Positions 1 through 62,496 of a stretch of 64,000 bases of DNA are shown here, in pieces. The DNA is taken from sequence record PX068456.1; one strand, 5' to 3'. Each line of letters opens with the position of its first letter. The first letter of the stretch is position 1. The position numbers were made by a program, and so were the translations under genes. The notes under the pieces were generated by a model. It made no database searches and was not told the origin of the DNA. It was given only the letters and a program-made list of their open reading frames with translations. The DNA comes from a phage.

Positions 1-189
1 CTTCATTAGTCTGGATGGTGTGATCATAAAAACAAAAGCCCAGCCCATCCATTCAGGAATTTCTTTATCAATTCCCAAATAAATAAACATACTGGACATA
101 ACAATCATACCAATAGCATTCCAAACTTTAGTAGAGCTGACTTTATTATCAGGATATGTACAAAACATTCCGATTAAAAACTTTCTCAT
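1..189 (-). CDS. hypothetical membrane protein, partial (runs off window start)
   Basis: Minus-strand ATG at 187-189 overlapping the stop of the upstream ORF (ATGA); frame open to position 1; hydrophobic stretch IGMIVMSSMFIYLGI. Confidence 0.35.
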   Translation of the reverse strand, partial: MRKFLIGMFCTYPDNKVSSTKVWNAIGMIVMSSMFIYLGIDKEIPEWMGWAFVFMITPSRLMK

Positions 190-494
190 AGTGCGTTCTC
201 ATTACTTTTTAAATCACGAGATACAGCTAATTCCCCAAGGTCTACAGAACCCGCTGAATGCACAAGTACAGCAGCACTAAGACTAATGGCAGTAGTACCT
301 GGGGCAATATCAGCAGGTAGGGAATACGCCCTTTGCGTCTCCTTATCATAGATAACCTTATACCCACCCAAATCCACACCAACTGAGAAGTAAATAACCT
401 CATTCTGCTTAACGCCAAAATGCCGAGCAATGGCTTGCTTATTGGTTAATATTCCAGTGGAACCTTTACCGCCTTGGGAGAATAATTCGTTCAT
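186..494 (-). CDS. hypothetical late protein
   Basis: 102-aa ORF co-oriented with and downstream of tail fibre genes. Confidence 0.45.
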   Translation of the reverse strand: MNELFSQGGKGSTGILTNKQAIARHFGVKQNEVIYFSVGVDLGGYKVIYDKETQRAYSLPADIAPGTTAISLSAAVLVHSAGSVDLGELAVSRDLKSNENAL

Positions 495-29705: not shown

Positions 29706-29839
29706 ATAAATTATCTTTAAAATAGCCAGTGTTTGCGGCACTTGACTATGAAGTATTAGGGTATCGGTAAGATGGTGGAGGCCATCTGCCGAAAGTTTAC
29801 TCTATTAAAGTAAGATTACAAGCTACATTAAAGATAACT

Positions 29840-29925
29840 TGGCGGTAGATGTAGGACTTGAACCTACACGCCGTTTCCGACGACAGTTTAGCAAACTGTT
29901 GTGGCTACCATTTCACCAATCTACC
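29840..29925 (-). tRNA. tRNA-Ser (anticodon GCT), type II
   Basis: Perfect acceptor GGTAGAT/ATCTACC, anticodon arm ACAGT-TTGCTAA-ACTGT, long variable arm. Confidence 0.7.
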
Positions 29926-29933
29926 GTTCTTAA

Positions 29934-30086
29934 TTATTCAAAACAACCGGAATCTTTTTGTTCTGCTTTTACCATACGAATATTTTTACCATCTTCAGAT
30001 TGTTGAAGATTAGAATACTCATAAACAACTTTATTATCTACAATCTTAACTCCGGTAACAACCTGTCCAATAGTTTTATAATTCAT
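29934..30086 (-). CDS. small hypothetical protein
   Basis: ORF-track start at 30134 would overlap tRNA-Ser(TGA); internal ATG at 30084-30086 has AGGAG upstream, so start trimmed. Confidence 0.3.
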   Translation of the reverse strand: MNYKTIGQVVTGVKIVDNKVVYEYSNLQQSEDGKNIRMVKAEQKDSGCFE

Positions 30087-30104
30087 AAAGCTCCTAGTTG
30101 AATT

Positions 30105-30194
30105 TGGAGGAAGATAATGGAGTCGAACCATCACCGTATCGCTACAATGGGCCAGGGTTCAAACCTGGTTGCGCACCGCTGCGCCCTACCTTCC
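30105..30194 (-). tRNA. tRNA-Ser (anticodon TGA), type II
   Basis: Acceptor GGAAGGT/ATCTTCC, anticodon arm CCAGG-TTTGAAC-CCTGG, long variable arm, T-arm GATGG-TTCGACT-CCATT. Confidence 0.6.
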
Positions 30195-30257
30195 CGTTAT
30201 CATACTTTAAATCTAACATAAAACTATCTTGCTTGTCAAGTAGTTTTTAAAACTTTT

Positions 30258-30339
30258 TGGTCGGGGTGACAGGATTCGAACCTGCATACTCCAATTACTC
30301 GGTTAACGCCTGATTAGAAGTCAGGTGAGATACACCCCG
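30258..30339 (-). tRNA. atypical tRNA-like gene (TCT anticodon-like hairpin, no canonical D-arm)
   Basis: Perfect 7-bp acceptor CGGGGTG/CACCCCG with CCA and good T-arm, but only hairpin CCTGA-CTTCTAA-TCAGG lies 9 nt from acceptor; fold unresolved by hand. Confidence 0.35.
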
Positions 30340-30411
30340 TTTTCACAGTAACTATAACAAAAAACTAAGTGAATGTCAAGATATTTTTACTAAAATTATT
30401 ATTTAAATTGA

Positions 30412-30517
30412 AGCCTAGTTATGGAATCGAACCATATTTCGTATTTAGTTAGACAAAGCGGTCTAACATATTTTTCAGGCTTTGATGGCCTCGGAATTAC
30501 CAAATACCCTACTAGGC
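30412..30517 (-). tRNA. atypical long tRNA-like gene (106 nt; possible TCA or CTT anticodon)
   Basis: Perfect acceptor GCCTAGT/ACTAGGC, canonical T-arm TATGG-TTCGATT-CCATA and D-arm with GG, but 74 nt between acceptor and T-stem. Confidence 0.35.
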
Positions 30518-30519
30518 GT

Positions 30520-30605
30520 TGGTGCAAGTGGAGGGATTCGAACCCTCAATCATTTAAGCGTTGCGTTTTAAGCACAATGTGTATCACCAATTCCACCACA
30601 CTTGC
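30520..30605 (-). tRNA. tRNA-Leu (anticodon TAA), type II
   Basis: Perfect acceptor GCAAGTG/CACTTGC, anticodon arm TTGTG-CTTAAAA-CGCAA, long variable arm, T-arm GAGGG-TTCGAAT-CCCTC. Confidence 0.7.
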
Positions 30606-30634
30606 ATATAGGAGATGCATAGCACCTCCTTTTA

Positions 30635-30712
30635 AATGGTGGTTCCCCAGGGTTACAATCCCTGCCCTCGACACTTATGAGGTGTGCGCTCTCGTCAGTG
30701 AGCTATGGAACC
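30635..30712 (-). tRNA. tRNA with CAT anticodon, copy 3 (unusual T-loop)
   Basis: Anticodon loop CTCATAA, D-arm GCTC-ACTGACGA-GAGC, T-loop ATTGTAA atypical, A7-G66 mismatch. Confidence 0.55.
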
Positions 30713-54009: not shown

Positions 54010-54207
54010 ATGATGCTAGATCAACTGATCAATGCTCCTCGCGTAACAGTAAGTCCAAAAACATTTGCATCACTTTTAGAAGATGCTAAAGAGGTTTATA
54101 ACTTTACTGAAGAAGAGCTTCCTGTTCCTGTTGAAAAAGGTTCCAGATGGTTGTTTTATGAAGGTATTATTTTTACCGAAGGGAATAATTGGAAGGAGAC
54201 TAAATGA
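54010..54207 (+). CDS. hypothetical protein
   Basis: Start re-chosen at ATG after AAGGAGG. Confidence 0.4.
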   Translation: MMLDQLINAPRVTVSPKTFASLLEDAKEVYNFTEEELPVPVEKGSRWLFYEGIIFTEGNNWKETK

Positions 54208-55193
54208 AATACTTAGTAACAGGTGGTTTAGGCTTTATTGGAAGTGCGGTAGTTCGTTTCCTGGCTAAAAATACTAAGAATGATATTTACGTTATAGATA
54301 AATGGGGTTACGCTTCAGATCCTAGAAATTTATCAGAAACACCCAATGTAAAGTTTTGTCGTGTTGACTTGACAAATGCGCAGTTAACTGCTAAGATTGT
54401 GGCAGATGTTAATCCAGATTATATAATGCATCTTGCAGCAGAAAGTCACGTAGATAATTCAATAGCATCACCGAGTGTTTTTATAAATTCAAATATTGTT
54501 GGGACATTTAATCTCCTAGAAGCTGTTCGTTTAATGGGAGATAAATCAAATCTTAAAATGTTCCATCATATTTCAACAGATGAAGTATATGGTGATATGG
54601 AAGAAGGGGATTATCCGTTTACAGAACAGAATCCTTATAAGCCAAGTAGTCCATATGCTGCATCTAAGGCAGCAAGCGATCATTTGGTAAGAGCGTGGCA
54701 TCGTACTTATGGTATTCCGACAGTTATAACAAATTGTTCAAATAATTTTGGAGCATATCATCATCCAGAAAAACTAATACCTAAAACGATAACAAATATC
54801 TTGATGCATAAACCAATCCCTGTTTATGGTAATGGTCTTCAAGTAAGAGACTGGTTATACGTTGACGATCACGCAGAAGCATTACACCTAGTAGTAACTA
54901 AAGGCAAATCTGGAGAAACATATAATATTGGGAGCAGAAACCCTAGAACTAATATTGATGTAATCTATATGATTTGTGATTATATGGATGCGGTGTATCC
55001 ATCTGAAACAGATGCTTGTAGCCTCATTGAGATGGTTACAGATAGACCTGGGCATGATTTAAGATACGAAGTGAATCCTTATAAGATTGAAAAGGAATTA
55101 GGGTGGAAAGCTAAAGGCACATTTGAAGAAAAACTTTATTCAACCATTGATTGGTATGTAGATAACAAAGAGTGGTGGGAAAATAAAGTTTAA
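54204..55193 (+). CDS. rmlB: dTDP-glucose 4,6-dehydratase
   Basis: N-terminal Rossmann [10 protein letters not shown], catalytic YxxxK (YAASKAA), 329 aa. Confidence 0.8.
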
Positions 55194-55201
55194 GGAGGAG
55201 T

Positions 55202-56071
55202 ATGAAAGGTATTATCTTAGCAGGTGGTAGTGGAACAAGACTTTACCCAGTTACTAAAGGGGTTAGTAAACAACTATTACCAATTTACGATAAACCTATG
55301 ATTTATTATCCACTCTCTGTCCTAATGCTTTCTGGAATTAGGGAAATACTAATAATTACAACACCAGAAGATCAAATTAATTTTGTAAATCTTCTAGGTG
55401 ATGGTTCTTCTTTTGGTATTTCCCTACAGTATGCAATACAAGAAAGCCCGAAAGGTTTAGCAGAAGCGTTTATTATTGGTGAGAGCTTTATTGGCGAAGA
55501 TTCTGTAGCACTTGTGCTAGGTGATAATTTATTCTTTGGTCAGAGTTTTGGTAGCATTTTAGATTCTGCTAAAGAACATATTGAAAAGAATGGTGGAGCT
55601 AATATTTTTGGGTATCACGTAAATGATCCTGAAAGATTTGGTGTTGTTGAGTTTGATTCTGAAGGTACAGTGGTGAGTATTGAAGAAAAACCAAAAACAC
55701 CAAAAAGCAACTATGCAGTTACAGGCTTGTACTTTTACGATAATTCTGTTATACAGAAAGCTAAGAGCGTTAAACCTTCTGCTAGAGGGGAGTTAGAGAT
55801 TACAGATATAAATGAGATGTACTGGAAAGAAAAGACTTTACGTGTCTGTAAACTAGGAAGAGGTTTCACTTGGCTGGATACAGGAACACATGAAAGTCTT
55901 ATGGAAGCATCTCAATTTGTTCATGCAATAGAAAAGCAACAAGGTATGAAGGTTGCATGCCTAGAAGAGATTGCTTTTAAAAATGAATGGATTACTTTAG
56001 ACTCTGTAAAAAGTTCTGGAGAGGTTTTAAGTAAAACAGACTACGGTAAGTATTTACTTAAATTAAAATAA
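55202..56071 (+). CDS. rmlA: glucose-1-phosphate thymidylyltransferase
   Basis: [18 protein letters not shown] signature N-terminus, 289 aa. Confidence 0.85.
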
Positions 56072-56083
56072 AGGGGGAATTAA

Positions 56084-56638
56084 ATGATTCAAGCAACAAA
56101 AATCGAAGATTTGTTGATCATTCAACCTGACGTTTACGGAGATGAACGTGGCTTTTTCTTAGAAAGTTTTAATCAGGCTTTATATGATCAATACATAGGT
56201 AAACAAAACTTTGTCCAGGATAACCACTCACGTTCTATTCGAGGAGTTCTACGTGGGCTTCATTTTCAAAAGAAAAACCCACAAGGGAAGTTAGTACGTT
56301 GTGTTCGTGGTGAAGTTTATGATGTTGCTGTAGATATTAGGGTTGGTAGTCCAACATTTGGAGAATGGGTAGGTGTTCTCTTATCTGAAAAGAATAAAAC
56401 ACAATTTTGGATTCCTCCTGGTTTCGCTCATGGCTTTGTTGTGATTAGCGACATTGCTGATTTTGAATATAAATGTACAGAATATTACGATCCGACTTCA
56501 GAGTGTAGTCTTGCGTGGAATGATCCAGATATCAATATAGATTGGGGTTTTGATTTAATCTTTAATGATATTAATTTTAAACCTATCTTGTCACAAAAAG
56601 ATCAGCAAGCCAAAACACTAAAGGAGATCATATTTTGA
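56084..56638 (+). CDS. rmlC: dTDP-4-dehydrorhamnose 3,5-epimerase
   Basis: Cupin-type RGLHFQ ... PPGFAHGF motifs, 184 aa. Confidence 0.8.
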   Translation: MIQATKIEDLLIIQPDVYGDERGFFLESFNQALYDQYIGKQNFVQDNHSRSIRGVLRGLHFQKKNPQGKLVRCVRGEVYDVAVDIRVGSPTFGEWVGVLLSEKNKTQFWIPPGFAHGFVVISDIADFEYKCTEYYDPTSECSLAWNDPDINIDWGFDLIFNDINFKPILSQKDQQAKTLKEIIF

Positions 56639-57465
56639 CAAAATTTTTAATCTTTGGTTCAAAAGGTCAATTAGGACAGTCTTTGGCAAAAGTTGCGCCC
56701 GAAGATGTTATTTTGATTGAAGCAAGTGATGTAGACATTACCAACTTTAAAGATGTTATGAATAGTCTTGTACAGCATGTGCCTGATGTTGTTGTGAATT
56801 GTGCGGCTTACACGGCAGTAGATAAAGCTGAAGAAGATGTTAACACCTGTATAAATGTTAATGCATACGGTGCAACAAACATTGCCAAAGCATGTAATGA
56901 TTTACTGATACAGTTTGTACATATTTCAACAGACTATGTTTTTGATGGGCATGTTGCTGGCACAGAAGAGAGTAAAACAAACCCCTTGAACACCTACGGT
57001 TACAGTAAACAATTAGGTGAAACTTTAGTACAAACAGTTTGTCCTACAGCACTTATTATCAGAACAGCTTCTGTTTATAGTGAGTTTGGACATAACTTTT
57101 TGAAAACTATGTTGGAACGCTACAACGGTGGTCAAAAAGAATTTAATGTAGTATGTGATCATTTATCATGTCCTACTTATGCACCTGATCTTGCAGAAAC
57201 AATTTTTAAACTTGTAAAAGATGGTGTAAATAGTAAAATTGTACACTATGCAGGTGCAGATTATATTTCTTGGTATGATTTTGCACGAAAGATATTTCTT
57301 GTTATAGATTTATCTGTTACAGTTAATCCTGTATCTGCTTCAACCTATAATTCCAAAGCAGTCAGACCAGCAACATCTTATTTAAAAACAGATCCTACTT
57401 TAAATCCGCGAAGTGTTGATAGCGGTATTGTAAGAACTTTAACTATACTTTTAAACAAGGAGTGA
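56635..57465 (+). CDS. rmlD: dTDP-4-dehydrorhamnose reductase
   Basis: 276 aa; Rossmann N-terminus IFGSKGQLG; completes rml gene set; TTG start. Confidence 0.7.
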   Translation: MTKFLIFGSKGQLGQSLAKVAPEDVILIEASDVDITNFKDVMNSLVQHVPDVVVNCAAYTAVDKAEEDVNTCINVNAYGATNIAKACNDLLIQFVHISTDYVFDGHVAGTEESKTNPLNTYGYSKQLGETLVQTVCPTALIIRTASVYSEFGHNFLKTMLERYNGGQKEFNVVCDHLSCPTYAPDLAETIFKLVKDGVNSKIVHYAGADYISWYDFARKIFLVIDLSVTVNPVSASTYNSKAVRPATSYLKTDPTLNPRSVDSGIVRTLTILLNKE

Positions 57466-57728
57466 AAATGAATTTTATTATCTACGGTAAACCAAATTGT
57501 CCTTTCTGCACTAACGCTAAGACTCTACTGGAACAGCGTGAACAGGATTTTAAATATCTTACCTTAGATGAAGACTATTCTTTAGATCAGATTCAGAATC
57601 TGGTTTTAGAGAAAACAGGTGTTCTGCCACGTACCTTTCCTCAAATTTTTGTGGAAGATGGTGAACATCTAACCCACGTAGGAGGTTTTTCTGAACTACG
57701 TGAATTCATGGCTCAGATTGCGGAGTAA
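57462..57728 (+). CDS. glutaredoxin-like protein
   Basis: 88 aa with CPFC active-site motif near N-terminus. Confidence 0.65.
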   Translation: MKMNFIIYGKPNCPFCTNAKTLLEQREQDFKYLTLDEDYSLDQIQNLVLEKTGVLPRTFPQIFVEDGEHLTHVGGFSELREFMAQIAE

Positions 57729-57888: not shown

Positions 57889-58389
57889 ATGGCTAAAGTA
57901 GTTGATGTGTTTGATATGTTACGTTTTGATGAAGGACTAAAGCTAACTGTATACACTGATACCGAAGGGTATTGGACGGTTGGTATTGGACACCTTCTGA
58001 CAAAACTTAAAGATAAATCAGAAGCTATACGCATTCTTGATAACTTAGTAGGTAGAAAAACTAATGGGGTTATTACTGAAGCGGAAGCTAGAAAAATCTT
58101 TGAGGGTGACGTAAAGAAAGCGATACAACAAATCCATTCAAGTACCATATTATCTCCTATTTACGATAAAGTAAGTCCTAATCGTAAAATGGCTATTATC
58201 AATATGGTATTTCAAATGGGGTTGAAAGGTGCAGAATCTTTCAAAAATAGCTTGACTTTAGTGAGTAATTCATATTATACTCAAGCCTCTATAAATTTAC
58301 GTAAAAGTAAATGGTATCGCCAAACGCCTAATCGCGCAGAGCGTGTAATTCAGGTGCTTAAAACTGGAACATTAGACGCTTATAACTAA
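57889..58389 (+). CDS. T4-type lysozyme (endolysin)
   Basis: DEGLKLTVYTDTEGYWTVGIGHLLTK ... INMVFQMG ... WYRQTPNRAERV closely parallels T4 gene e lysozyme. Confidence 0.85.
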   Translation: MAKVVDVFDMLRFDEGLKLTVYTDTEGYWTVGIGHLLTKLKDKSEAIRILDNLVGRKTNGVITEAEARKIFEGDVKKAIQQIHSSTILSPIYDKVSPNRKMAIINMVFQMGLKGAESFKNSLTLVSNSYYTQASINLRKSKWYRQTPNRAERVIQVLKTGTLDAYN

Positions 58390-58427: not shown

Positions 58428-59180
58428 ATGGGAAATAAAACCGCAAAGGCTCGTCGTCAATCAGCAGCCAATGATGACAAACGTGCCAGTCGTTATGCGG
58501 CTAAAGCAGTAGGAAATGATGATTACCGTCTTGATGAATTTACCCCTGTTGGGAATCAAGAAGCTATTGTAAGAAGCATGGTTTGGAATGATTTAACCAT
58601 TGTTAATGCCCCAGCAGGAACAGGAAAAACGACAACAGCACTATGGAAAGCATTGCAAATGCTTAAAGCTGGTGACTTCAGAAAGTTGATTTTCCTTAAA
58701 AACCCGACAGAAGTAGGTGATGACCAAATCGGTTTCTTATCTGGAGATAAGACTGATAAACTAGCAGCACACTACGAGTCAACTAAAAGAATTTTCCAAC
58801 AGTTTATGACTGCAAATAAATTGGAAAACGATATTGCAAGTGGCAAAATTGAACTTAATATTCCAAACTATGCACTAGGTGCTACGTGGGATAACAGCAT
58901 TATTCTTATTGATGAAGTTCAACTTATGTCACCAAACACAGTAAAACTTCTCCTTGAGCGAGCAGGTCTTAATACACGAATTGTCATTATGGGTGATGTT
59001 AATCAAACATATGCAATTAAACGAAGAGCTAACGGGTTAGGTGATTTGTTAGATCGTGTTGTTCCTATTAACGAAGAAGGAGAAAGGGAAGCTATTGTAG
59101 ATTTTATTGGTTATGTTGAAATGACAACTGCTGATAACCAACGTTCCCGTTTGTCTCAGTTCATCACGGAAGTATATTAA
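58428..59180 (+). CDS. phoH: PhoH-like ATPase
   Basis: Walker A NAPAGTGKTT; 250 aa. Confidence 0.7.
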   Translation: MGNKTAKARRQSAANDDKRASRYAAKAVGNDDYRLDEFTPVGNQEAIVRSMVWNDLTIVNAPAGTGKTTTALWKALQMLKAGDFRKLIFLKNPTEVGDDQIGFLSGDKTDKLAAHYESTKRIFQQFMTANKLENDIASGKIELNIPNYALGATWDNSIILIDEVQLMSPNTVKLLLERAGLNTRIVIMGDVNQTYAIKRRANGLGDLLDRVVPINEEGEREAIVDFIGYVEMTTADNQRSRLSQFITEVY

Positions 59181-59216
59181 TAATTACAAGGCAAGGATGC
59201 CTGTTATGGAGGTTAA

Positions 59217-59711
59217 ATGACGCTAATTGAGATTGATCGCAATGGTATTGATGAATGCTATCAAGCTGGCTTAGTTAAGCCGAATGAGTTTAGACAGATT
59301 TATATTGACAAGATTGAAAAAGAAATATCTCTTCGTTTAGAGAACATGACAACTTTGCAAAAAGTTCAGATGTTTTTTAGTTGGTTAAAAGGAGAGGATT
59401 GGCTAACTAAATATTACCAGGAATTATCTGATAGTCAAGAAGGCTTGTTTGAGTGTATAATAAATGTAGCCGGATCTAATTCAGAATTACTCCTGATTGA
59501 TGAAGAAGATTCTAAACTTCTTTTTCTTAGCAGTATCTTTCACAAGAAGTCTATGTTAGTAAGAAATTGCAGTGATTTACTAAATCATCCACTAACAAGA
59601 ACTAATAAAATTCTTGTGGATAAAGAAACACTAAGAGCTATTGATTACCTACGTAAGTATGTAAGCGGTGGTAAAGCAGTCCTTAAAACACTACAGGAGG
59701 AAGTACAATGA
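59217..59711 (+). CDS. hypothetical protein
   Basis: 164-aa ORF, translationally coupled (ATGA) to HslV-like gene. Confidence 0.45.
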   Translation: MTLIEIDRNGIDECYQAGLVKPNEFRQIYIDKIEKEISLRLENMTTLQKVQMFFSWLKGEDWLTKYYQELSDSQEGLFECIINVAGSNSELLLIDEEDSKLLFLSSIFHKKSMLVRNCSDLLNHPLTRTNKILVDKETLRAIDYLRKYVSGGKAVLKTLQEEVQ

Positions 59712-60361
59712 CAACAATTATTGCAACACATAACAAAATTCTATCTGACGGTAAAGTAACAGTAGGTAATCGAGTAGACACTTTAAATTTCAAGAAAGTG
59801 CGTAAAATTGGGGATTACCTTGTTGGTGGTGCAGGACGTCTGTCTTCTATCCTGACTTTCTTTTCTTGGTTTGAACAAAACTTACAGTGCCAGGCAGCAC
59901 AAGAGACAATCCCAGGTTTGGTGATCCAATCAGATCCTGATAAAGAAGATGAAGAGTTTGTGGCATTGGTTGTTCACCCAGACGGTAAAATTTATATGCA
60001 CGAGGGTAATAATCCAACGCGAGCATATCCTTTAACTGAAGATTACTATGCTGTTGGTAGTGGGGCAGATTTTGCTTTAGCAGCTTTAGACGCTGGGGCA
60101 ACCCCAGAAGAAGCGATGGAAGTTGCAAAACTACGAGATGCTTTTTCAGGCGGTGAAACTTTTGTTGAAGAGATCGAAGAACAACTGGAGCTAACAGCGG
60201 AAGATATTCTGAACTTCAGCAAGGAGCAACTAATTAGTATGCTGTTGACTGGTGATCCTGATAGTGATGAAGCTGAAAGTATTTTAGCAGAAATGAAAGA
60301 ATCACAAGAAAAAGTGTTGACAGTCTCTGAAAAACTTGATAAAGTGTCCTCTGATAATTAA
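59708..60361 (+). CDS. HslV-like N-terminal nucleophile peptidase with acidic C-terminal extension
   Basis: MTTIIAT start (Thr2 nucleophile position), DGKVTVGN, FKKVRK, GGAG, YAVGSGADFALAALDAG parallel E. coli HslV blocks (from memory). Confidence 0.55.
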   Translation: MTTIIATHNKILSDGKVTVGNRVDTLNFKKVRKIGDYLVGGAGRLSSILTFFSWFEQNLQCQAAQETIPGLVIQSDPDKEDEEFVALVVHPDGKIYMHEGNNPTRAYPLTEDYYAVGSGADFALAALDAGATPEEAMEVAKLRDAFSGGETFVEEIEEQLELTAEDILNFSKEQLISMLLTGDPDSDEAESILAEMKESQEKVLTVSEKLDKVSSDN

Positions 60362-60401: not shown

Positions 60402-60830
60402 ATGTTACCAGTACCTGTAATCTTTGTAGAAAAAGCCTATTACTCTTTAGAACAAAACTGTAAAAGGGCTAAAAATTTTATTGAAAGTTTAGCAGAACAG
60501 CGTTATACTGTATCTAAAAAGGGATGGTTCAGAACTTCACAATATCTAGTCAACCCTTTCGGAGAAGTTCGTGTGTTGTACGGCAACACAGAAAATATCT
60601 TAGAAAGAATGTTAGAACTAGATAGGATCTCCTCCTGTGATTATCAACTGTTGAAATTTTACGATGTGTCAGAAAACGTTAAAAACTTTCTTGACGACTT
60701 ATGTAAACGAAAAACAGAAGAAGATACAATACCAGTATCTATGGAAGAATTAACGTTCTTAAGAGATATTATGGTTTTTGAAGAAAACCCTGAAATCACA
60801 AAAGAGGAGATTTTAAGTAGTGGCAAATAA
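60402..60830 (+). CDS. hypothetical protein
   Basis: 142-aa ORF. Confidence 0.45.
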   Translation: MLPVPVIFVEKAYYSLEQNCKRAKNFIESLAEQRYTVSKKGWFRTSQYLVNPFGEVRVLYGNTENILERMLELDRISSCDYQLLKFYDVSENVKNFLDDLCKRKTEEDTIPVSMEELTFLRDIMVFEENPEITKEEILSSGK

Positions 60831-61833: not shown

Positions 61834-62496
61834 ATGAAGTTTGTACTGTATCATCGACTTTCTAAGAAGAAACAACAAGGCAACCAGTATGGTATAGAAT
61901 CACAGGAAGCAGATATCCAACGCTTCCTGGATTCACAAGAAAATTATACTATTGTAGGTAGCTTTGCAGAGTTTTATTCTGGTAAAGGCGATTGGAAGCA
62001 ACGTAGAGAGCTTGTAAAAGCTGTTAATCTTTGCAAAGAAACAGGTGCTACACTTGTTGTTGCTAAGGTTGACCGTCTTGGACGTAACACAGCTTCTGTT
62101 GCAACCTTGTTAGAGATGATTAATGTACGGATAGCAACTATGCCCTCCGCTGAAAATATGATAATAAATATTTTAGCAGTTCTGGCAGAAGAAGAGGCTC
62201 GTGCAATATCTGATCGTGTTAAGAAGAGCCTTAAGGTAGCAAAAGCGAAGGGAACGCTTCTTGGTGCAGCAAACCCTAAATACAAAAGAACAGATTATAC
62301 GAAAACGGAAGAAGCAAAACGCTCAAAAGAGTTTGCACTTTCTTTAAAAGATTCTTTAGTTGCATACAGAGCTTGTAAAACGCCATATATGACGATTGCA
62401 AAGCATCTGAATGAATCAGGAAAGAGAACTATTCGTGGGAGTTTGTTCGATGCCAAAGCGGTACAACGTCTTTGTGCAAAATTGAATATTAAATAA
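61834..62496 (+). CDS. serine recombinase (resolvase/invertase catalytic domain)
   Basis: YHRLS (Ser nucleophile position), VVAKVDRLGRN, ILAVLAEEEARAISDR parallel resolvase motifs. Confidence 0.6.
   Translation: MKFVLYHRLSKKKQQGNQYGIESQEADIQRFLDSQENYTIVGSFAEFYSGKGDWKQRRELVKAVNLCKETGATLVVAKVDRLGRNTASVATLLEMINVRIATMPSAENMIINILAVLAEEEARAISDRVKKSLKVAKAKGTLLGAANPKYKRTDYTKTEEAKRSKEFALSLKDSLVAYRACKTPYMTIAKHLNESGKRTIRGSLFDAKAVQRLCAKLNIK

Follow-up and report, generated by a model that had tools for sequence, protein, structure and literature searches.

Proteasome homologues, those of phages included, were surveyed in 2021 by Fuchs, Alva, Lupas and colleagues (PMC8665760). Among the classes described there, PPH is a compact protein of ~140 residues from Caudovirales that has no propeptide and has lost helix H2; RPC combines a PPH-related core with a C-terminal extension and occurs only in Proteobacteria genomes; and BPH, for which there is no unfoldase, has a pore loop after H1/H2 that is long and acidic, compared with a very short loop in HslU-gated HslV (PMC8665760). 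HslV receives HslU's C-terminal tail in a pocket made up of Phe54, Phe57, Gln114 and Ala79/Lys80 (PMC6429459). Here we compare with these systems an HslV-like peptidase encoded in phage sequence record PX068456.1, of which we analyzed one stretch of 64,000 nucleotides (“the window”; positions are counted from its first letter, and the features discussed are collected in the table). Our preferred reading, to which we assign a probability of about 0.6, is that this peptidase is an active, accessory, cytoplasmic N-terminal-threonine enzyme of the H2-less phage class, with no dedicated unfoldase and with a tail that serves regulation or recruitment.

The AlphaFold2 model of the peptidase (a monomer prediction, calculated with 37 family sequences) has a mean predicted local distance difference test score (pLDDT) of 87 and a predicted template modeling score of 0.71, and on this model the fold is that of the proteasome-beta/HslV N-terminal-nucleophile (Ntn) enzymes, an alpha-beta-beta-alpha sandwich. 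Foldseek against the PDB returned HslV, BPH, and 20S beta subunits from archaea and eukaryotes, with a probability of 1.0, with E-values down to 5e-10 and target-normalized template modeling scores of 0.54–0.68; among predicted viral structures, 48 phage proteins share the fold. An earlier, sequence-only reading of this DNA had proposed an HslV-like Ntn fold, to be settled by structure prediction, for an open reading frame (ORF) whose product opens MTTIIAT and contains the blocks DGKVTVGN, FKKVRK, GGAG, and YAVGSGADFALAALDAG; the ORF and all of these blocks are present in the translation, and the model and the structure comparison agree with the proposed fold.

The same reading had placed the nucleophile at the threonine after Met1 and had asked how well the Lys33 and Ser-Gly positions hold up in a proper alignment. 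In alignments of 37–53 sequences or clusters at no more than 50% identity, with E. coli HslV aligned, M1-T2-T3, D14, K30, G43, and G117-S118-G119 are invariant, and G40 and S147-G148-G149 are either invariant or at least 90% conserved. T2 corresponds to Thr1, D14 to HslV Asp17, K30 to Lys33, G40/G43 to the oxyanion Gly region, and S118 to Ser124 in HslV and Ser129 in 20S. A further conserved core block, R143-D144-x-x-S147-G148-G149, includes a stretch (D144 to G149) that we take to resemble the Asp166/Ser169/Gly170 motif of 20S beta subunits; profile positions 109–170 match beta5 residues 121–194, which is consistent with such a 20S-like Asp/Ser/Gly block. Nearly all of 145 more distant relatives also start with M-T-T, and therefore there is no propeptide; removal of Met ahead of Thr in E. 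coli has been demonstrated for recombinant HslV (PMC6429459). The core is under strong purifying selection, with a non-synonymous rate (dN) of 0.11–0.26 and a ratio of non-synonymous to synonymous rates (omega) of about 0.05–0.13 between genera; synonymous rates are saturated at this distance, and what we use is the relative dN gradient (core < tail motif < distal tail). Judged from the alignments, the conserved catalytic residues, the lack of a propeptide, and the constraint on the core speak for threonine peptidase activity rather than for an inactive scaffold.

At the sequence level, the peptidase matches PHROG 1040 (“peptidase HslV family”) over residues 1–212 with E=1.5e-62 and Pfam Proteasome (PF00227) with 24.4 bits against a cut-off of 22.4, the latter alignment being limited to residues 11–63. 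Solved HslV chains are found by the single sequence with phmmer (E=2.4e-7) and by the family profile (E=7.5e-12, in an alignment that runs from the mature N-terminal Thr1), and on the strength of these searches its homology to the proteasome/HslV superfamily far exceeds chance. The peptidase is, however, not an HslV orthologue, because its scores against the NCBIfam HslV equivalogs NF003964 and TIGR03692 are 34.5 and 32.2 bits, which do not reach the cut-offs of 137 and 157.75, and because H2 is missing and H3 is shorter. Among solved proteins, HslV (ClpQ) matches it best in both sequence and structure, and the two share an N-terminal Thr exposed by Met removal as well as Asp17, Lys33, and Gly-Ser124-Gly, all aligned and conserved in the peptidase. 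They differ in that identity is 22–29%, that the peptidase lacks H2, has an H3 shorter by 9 residues, reads RDxxSGG where E. coli HslV reads GDICIYTN, and adds a 60-residue acidic tail, and that it has no hslU partner gene: no hslU-like gene is present in the window or in the annotation of the 99% identical PHB05 genome. An HslV subunit has four flanking helices, H1–H4, with the HslU-facing surface and the C-tail pocket on H1/H2, and HslV assembles as a dodecamer of two hexameric rings. The HslU docking surface in its canonical form appears incomplete on the model, because pocket residues 79/80 are lost with H2 and Gln114 is replaced by Ala106; HslV F54/F57 align with L49/F52 of the peptidase, F52 being at least 90% conserved. 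Capture of host HslU is less likely for this reason.

With PPH and RPC the peptidase shares the lack of a propeptide, the missing H2, and a compact beta-sandwich core with Thr1/Asp17/Lys33/Gly and without S12/H5; with PPH it also shares carriage by phages, and with RPC a C-terminal extension. It differs from PPH in length (217 residues, namely a 157-residue core and a 60-residue tail with a motif that is undescribed in PMC8665760, vs. ~140) and from RPC in distribution, since RPC is confined to Proteobacteria genomes and the tailed clade around our peptidase is essentially phage-only. BPH (Thiobacillus denitrificans; PDB 5ovs/5ovt) is recovered by Foldseek with a probability of 1.0, has no known unfoldase partner, and resembles the peptidase in that the latter has an acidic loop at the pore-loop position; it is 19–20% identical, though, has retained H2, and assembles into a tetradecameric double ring, whereas the peptidase is known here as a monomer model. 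Placed by these described features, the peptidase fits best among the phage homologues for which Fuchs et al. (2021) noted the loss of H2 (PPH/RPC).

The sequence-only reading had handled the peptidase as unusual, but the protein is already known: public databases already give it the appropriate family name, and its class has been published (PMC8665760). The window comes from a phi92-like myovirus (Justusliebigvirus). The 3-kb neighborhood of the gene is 98–99.5% identical to 56 phage records of Justusliebigvirus (phi92, PHB05, alia, PaulScherrer, and others; Stephanstirmvirinae), and 100% identical proteins occur in PHB05, alia, W22, PaulScherrer, and other phages, where GenBank and RefSeq call them “peptidase HslV family,” “HslV family peptidase,” “putative 20S proteasome,” or “putative proteasome component.” The annotated Phi92_gp058 homologues and PHROG 1040 are thus the same protein without any difference, and their naming is based on homology. 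Four unannotated “Campylobacter phage” records with C. jejuni as host (MG065639, MG065645, MG065656, and MG065689) are 98.4% identical over 3 kb to the E. coli phi92-like lineage, which looks like a host mislabel or contamination.

Homologues that are ~70–78% identical are found in Phapecoctavirus and Klebsiella phages, and homologues that are ~33–37% identical in Vibrio, Aeromonas, and Shewanella phages, for a total of 167 phage records. Close relatives all lie on phage or viral contigs; in cellular genomes, a pattern-based scan of 185,579 bacterial and archaeal species genomes, which distant cellular relatives may escape, found the tailed clade on one 425-bp contig. The relatives' loci considered below were likewise collected by pattern-based scans, which miss distant relatives. 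In an exhaustive profile search, the next proteins after the tailed clade were hundreds of M-T-T proteins of 137–160 residues, the size of PPH, with E=1e-18 to 1e-28. Neither the peptidase nor its two small neighbors matched any of the PADLOC anti-phage-defense families.

Past the last core strand, the peptidase continues for 60 residues (158–217) with a net charge of -11 and 27% D/E. The acidic C-terminal tail noted from the sequence is thus present, but it is longer than the ~40 residues then estimated, and the core itself is acidic (net charge -12). The tail falls into two parts. The proximal part carries the motif L-T-x-E-x4-5-[ML]-[ST]-K-E-[EQ]-[LI]-[LI]-x2-[LI]-[FLY]-[GP], which is recognizable in almost all of 53 clusters at no more than 50% identity; its two helices (164–169 and 172–181) have a pLDDT of about 78–83 and its dN is intermediate (0.35–0.55). 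In the distal part, acidic composition is kept and sequence is not (dN 0.6–3.1, omega about 1, range 0.6–2.7). Among relatives, tails range from 11 to 193 residues (median 104, median net charge -15), and the distal part is replaced by variable modules of up to about 190 residues. From this pattern, the conserved motif is probably a structural or regulatory element, which, to go by pLDDT and conservation, may pack on the H1 face exposed by the loss of H2, and the distal tail is probably a variable appendage for recruitment, gating, or solubility.

No Pfam domain was significant in the relatives' tails, the one sub-threshold match being to Rho_N (E=0.054) in a long-tailed relative. Extra C-terminal modules are seen in the long-tailed relatives P0117, P0069, and P0061, and in P0118, P0120, P0128, P0143, P0153, and P0158: one type, rich in Cys, resembles a zinc ribbon and has a Trp-rich end, and the other ends in an HeH/Rho_N-like motif (L..L....L.I.Y....K..L...I) for which that sub-threshold match is the sole Pfam support. 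HslV is activated by the HslU C-terminal octapeptide EDLSRFIL, whose antepenultimate aromatic residue is critical (PMC4106860). We considered the tail motif as a mimic of this octapeptide and rejected the idea, since family members vary at the antepenultimate aromatic position and the motif lies within the chain; what likeness there is belongs to acidic amphipathic helices in general.

The peptidase gene lies in a same-strand order of dTDP-rhamnose genes, glutaredoxin, T4-type lysozyme, PhoH-like ATPase, a 164-residue ORF, the peptidase, a 142-residue ORF, and a DNA methyltransferase. Its ATG overlaps the TGA of the preceding ORF (ATGA, 59708–59711). No plus-strand terminator-like site was found by scan between 57.4 and 61.9 kb, and the counts of the promoter and terminator scan do not exceed shuffled expectation. 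Because of the strong Shine-Dalgarno sequence, the ATGA overlap, and the lack of a plus-strand terminator, the gene looks like a member of a long co-directional transcription unit, translationally coupled to its 5′ neighbor. The dTDP-rhamnose set appears complete (epimerase/dehydratase, glucose-1-phosphate thymidylyltransferase, 3,5-epimerase, and reductase, followed by glutaredoxin) and is an auxiliary pathway that one would not usually expect in a phage; the genome has four glycosyltransferase genes at other sites. Near the peptidase module there is also a serine-recombinase-type “DNA invertase” gene, in a myovirus genome that looks strictly lytic, and a cluster of 16 tRNA genes, three of them tRNA-Met(cat), occupies a stretch poor in annotated coding sequences.

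The PhoH and peptidase genes are no more than 3.5 kb apart in every examined locus with a peptidase at least 35% identical (the tailed clade; L002–L005, L010–L029, and L057). The linkage is kept despite changes in order, with PhoH downstream in L029, immediately upstream in L057, and separated by a TnpB-type gene in L002; near the short PPH-like genes, PhoH is absent at about 30 loci. The linkage may be functional, or the gene order may just have been inherited by related large myoviruses. The inserted gene of L002 (Vibrio phage 1.193.O, L002:3767-4867) is of the IS605 OrfB/TnpB type (Pfam OrfB_IS605, Cas12f1-like TNB), stands between the PhoH and proteasome-like genes, and is named simply “coil containing protein” in the record. 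The PhoH C-terminus was examined as a docking peptide and dismissed: the PhoH domain ends in this conserved helix, and no aromatic residue in it is conserved among divergent linked loci.

The 164-residue ORF is always directly upstream of the peptidase in Stephanstirmvirinae-type loci, and its product is modeled by AlphaFold2 as an all-alpha orphan fold (pLDDT 93.5); a role as partner or regulator of the peptidase is possible. The 142-residue downstream gene is co-conserved in most loci with a peptidase at least 58% identical (tblastn). That the 164-residue ORF might be a degenerate HslV-like paralogue was suggested by its MTLIEIDRNG start, an FFSW motif, collinear weak BLAST matches, and the presence of two adjacent proteasome-like genes in Aeromonas phage 4L372D; this idea was abandoned, given an hhalign probability of 0.15%, an N-terminus that is not conserved in the family, and the all-alpha model. 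In 4L372D, the first of the two genes (L003:4432-4983) encodes 183 residues from a TTG start (xTCIIAL..., with VGCG replacing GSG; PHROG 1040, E=9.6e-26) and the second (L003:5001-5885) is a 294-residue tailed homologue; the pair might indicate a hetero-oligomer.

The window contains no annotated AAA+ unfoldase gene, and no recurrent Clp/HslU/Lon/FtsH-type protein appears among 111 neighboring ORFs of 22 divergent loci. The statement, made from the sequence, that no AAA+ unfoldase is nearby thus stands for the window and for these loci, but it does not extend to the genome, since PHB05 (NC_052652.1, 99% identical) has two paralogous PF00004 AAA ATPases, gp184 and gp214 (phrog_2376, not HslU), outside the window. 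These were rejected as specific partners: their family is found in 373 phage records, many of them with Gram-positive hosts, a host group without HslV-like matches, compared with 167 records for the peptidase, and in none of 60 loci does a phrog_2376 gene lie within 10 kb of the peptidase gene. One phrog_2376 copy is named “FtsH-like protease” in phage PaulScherrer.

The head module, ~37 kb away on the opposite strand, has a protease of its own: the gene between the portal and capsid genes, named “DNA methyltransferase” in RefSeq PHB05 via phrog_1530, is, to judge by its domain matches, probably a mis-named prohead protease of the S78/XkdF type. Because of this dedicated enzyme, the HslV-like protein is unnecessary for head maturation, which bears out the earlier view that it is unlikely to be the prohead protease. 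Short PPH-like genes (about 140 residues) lie beside terminase or portal genes in 4 of 22 loci (L032, L036, L042, and L050, with similar viral contigs), and these homologues might serve head morphogenesis in some phages.

Features of the window and of the peptidase (window positions unless stated otherwise; aa, residues of the peptidase)
Feature	Position	Strand	Basis or remark
Prohead protease, S78/XkdF-type, between portal and capsid genes	21710..22201	-	Pfam Peptidase_S78_2 E=2.6e-11; PHROG head maturation protease families
16 tRNA genes	27836-30712	-	
dTDP-rhamnose set	54204-57728	+	
T4-type lysozyme	57889-58389	+	
PhoH-like P-loop ATPase	58428..59180	+	Pfam PhoH E=1.4e-35
Upstream ORF, 164 aa, phrog_14834 = Phi92_gp059	59217..59711	+	coupled to peptidase
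Shine-Dalgarno AGGAGG	59695..59700	+	read from sequence; 7 nt 5′ of peptidase ATG
Peptidase gene, 217 aa, ATG start	59708..60361	+	ORF and translation; = Phi92_gp058 = PHB05 JR317_gp052
Catalytic core, aa 1-157	59708..60178	+	alignments of 18-53 sequences, model secondary structure, dN
Strands	aa 3-43		AlphaFold2 model
Helix H1	aa 45-67		AlphaFold2 model, DSSP
Acidic loop (DPDKEDEE) at HslV H2 site	aa 68-83		AlphaFold2 model; no helix until H3
Strands	aa 84-117		AlphaFold2 model
Helix H3	aa 120-128		AlphaFold2 model
Helix H4	aa 133-143		AlphaFold2 model
Last core strand	aa 152-155		AlphaFold2 model
Tail helices	aa 164-169, 172-181, 188-213		AlphaFold2 model
Proximal tail, aa 158-186: acidic linker and helix-turn-helix motif (here LTAEDILNFSKEQLISMLLTG)	60179..60265	+	clusters, model, dN
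Distal acidic tail, aa 187-217, modeled as a single long low-confidence helix	60266..60358	+	pLDDT 54-77
Downstream hypothetical gene, 142 aa, phrog_15078	60402..60830	+	PHROG match
“DNA invertase,” serine-recombinase-type	61834-62496	+	
phrog_2376 AAA ATPases	PHB05 118223-119383, 134148-135275 (L007:33224-34384, L008:149-1276)		about 95-110 kb from peptidase gene

A natural deletion bears on the role of the locus. In phage VEcB (MT932211.1, deposited as complete; locus L066, 18500-24500), a 267-residue protein (P0043) consists of PhoH residues 1–114 fused in frame to peptidase residues 65–217. The deletion of 1,130 bp lies between two 8-bp copies of GCAGCACA (window 58764–58771 and 59894–59901), is equivalent to window 58772–59901, and removes the C-terminal half of PhoH, the entire 164-residue ORF, and peptidase residues 1–64, including Thr1, Asp14, Lys30, and Gly43. 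PhoH, the 164-residue ORF, and the peptidase thus appear dispensable for propagation on a laboratory host, unless the deposited consensus comes from a mixed stock, and such dispensability fits an accessory or host-interaction role.

Taken together, we favor the following mechanism. Host methionine aminopeptidase would cut off Met1 and expose Thr2 as the nucleophile, which would act with Asp14, Lys30, Gly40, and Ser118 as HslV and the 20S beta subunits do. The peptidase gene would be expressed as part of a long co-directional operon with auxiliary and metabolic functions, in translational coupling with the gene for a small helical protein and in linkage with that for a PhoH-like ATPase. The peptidase would work as an accessory cytoplasmic factor rather than in virion maturation. 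It would most likely have no dedicated AAA+ unfoldase, its targets being peptides or else unfolded or specifically recruited proteins; the proximal tail motif would be a structural or regulatory element and the distal acidic tail a variable appendage for recruitment or gating. Several points weigh against this mechanism. The loss of H2 and an H3 that is 9 residues shorter than in HslV leave ring assembly unproven, and isolated proteasome subunits need ring assembly for activity (PMC8665760). The two AAA ATPases elsewhere in the genome, host HslU/ClpX, or the linked PhoH could act as partners. We found no enzymatic, structural, or genetic study of this protein or of any PPH-class member in the literature. 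Finally, a second VEcB record (OZ035773.1) is intact, and the deletion could stem from a mixed or laboratory-adapted stock.

The sequence-only reading had offered hijacking of host HslU as one option; in the form considered here, the peptidase would dock on host HslU, or on another host AAA+ unfoldase such as ClpX, and redirect ATP-dependent degradation to substrates chosen by the phage. The HslV homology, an E. coli host that has HslU, and a C-tail pocket whose H1 face is in part hydrophobic and conserved (L49, F52) would suit such docking; but H2 with Ala79/Lys80 is absent, H3 is shortened, the equivalog scores are far below their cut-offs, relatives from phages of many hosts have the same architecture, the tail projects from the partner-docking region, and there is nothing positive in support, so that we consider this option unlikely, though foremost among the alternatives. 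Behind it, and unlikely as well, comes a partnership with an ATPase of the phage, be it the linked PhoH, for which the small helical protein would be the adaptor, or either of the phrog_2376 AAA ATPases. A PhoH gene that stays within 3.5 kb throughout the tailed clade, even in rearranged loci, a translationally coupled helical ORF, and two PF00004 AAA proteins in the genome, one of them annotated as FtsH-like in PaulScherrer, all speak for it. PhoH-family proteins, however, are P-loop ATPases tied to RNA helicase and RNase activities, not protein unfoldases; the linkage comes without mechanistic support, the synteny is perhaps inherited, PhoH is missing near about 30 short PPH-like genes and has no conserved aromatic at its C-terminus, and the AAA family is broader and lies about 95–110 kb off.

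An Ntn enzyme need not be a general protease, and the peptidase might instead carry out a non-proteolytic or highly specific reaction, as a connectase-like ligase/transpeptidase or as an amidohydrolase acting on a small molecule or modified protein: a ligase, connectase, belongs to the superfamily, as do many proteins whose activity is unknown (PMC8665760), and the gene lies among dTDP-sugar and nucleotide metabolism genes. We regard this as improbable, given that the connectase signature (a helical insertion in S3/S4 and loss of H1/H2) is absent, that the closest matches are the proteases HslV, BPH, and 20S beta, and that the full protease-type residue set is kept. We rank behind it the speculative idea that the peptidase, the coupled helical protein, and PhoH form one module in which a ring of PhoH, a non-AAA+ P-loop ATPase, replaces HslU or the tail motif acts as a built-in activator; if true, the phage would encode a machine of a new kind for ATP-linked or self-activated degradation, directed against host factors. 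An inactive scaffold had also been among the initial options; as such, or as a decoy, the protein might, for instance, poison host HslV rings or titrate HslU, and the HslV homology, the acidic tail as a possible interaction surface, and the dispensability of the gene in one isolate could be read in favor of this. It has become very improbable in view of the purifying selection on the core and because a pure scaffold would not have to keep catalytic positions that are invariant at no more than 50% identity, or an N-terminus that is always M-T-T. Co-assembly with host HslV is unlikely, too, given that H2 is missing and H3 is shortened. We give next to no credence to a role as prohead or virion maturation protease: distant, short PPH-like genes do adjoin terminase or portal genes in 4 of 22 loci, but here the head module has its own S78/XkdF-type protease, the peptidase gene is ~37 kb off, on the other strand and among metabolic genes, and one deposited genome (VEcB) lacks the catalytic N-terminus altogether.

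Proteasome-like threonine peptidases are carried by phages of several lineages, and their targets may be host defense or regulatory proteins, phage proteins, or peptides. To what was already annotated, our analysis adds a conserved tail motif, the linkage to PhoH and to a helical protein, the family-wide lack of unfoldase neighbors, and a natural deletion. Experimental handles are provided by the defined catalytic set, a tail motif that is separable from the disposable acidic tail, two candidate linked partners, and the deletion variant. Once known, the substrates would make these enzymes a new class among the few cytoplasmic proteases that phages are known to encode, and they could reveal what controls a proteasome-type active site when there is no unfoldase.

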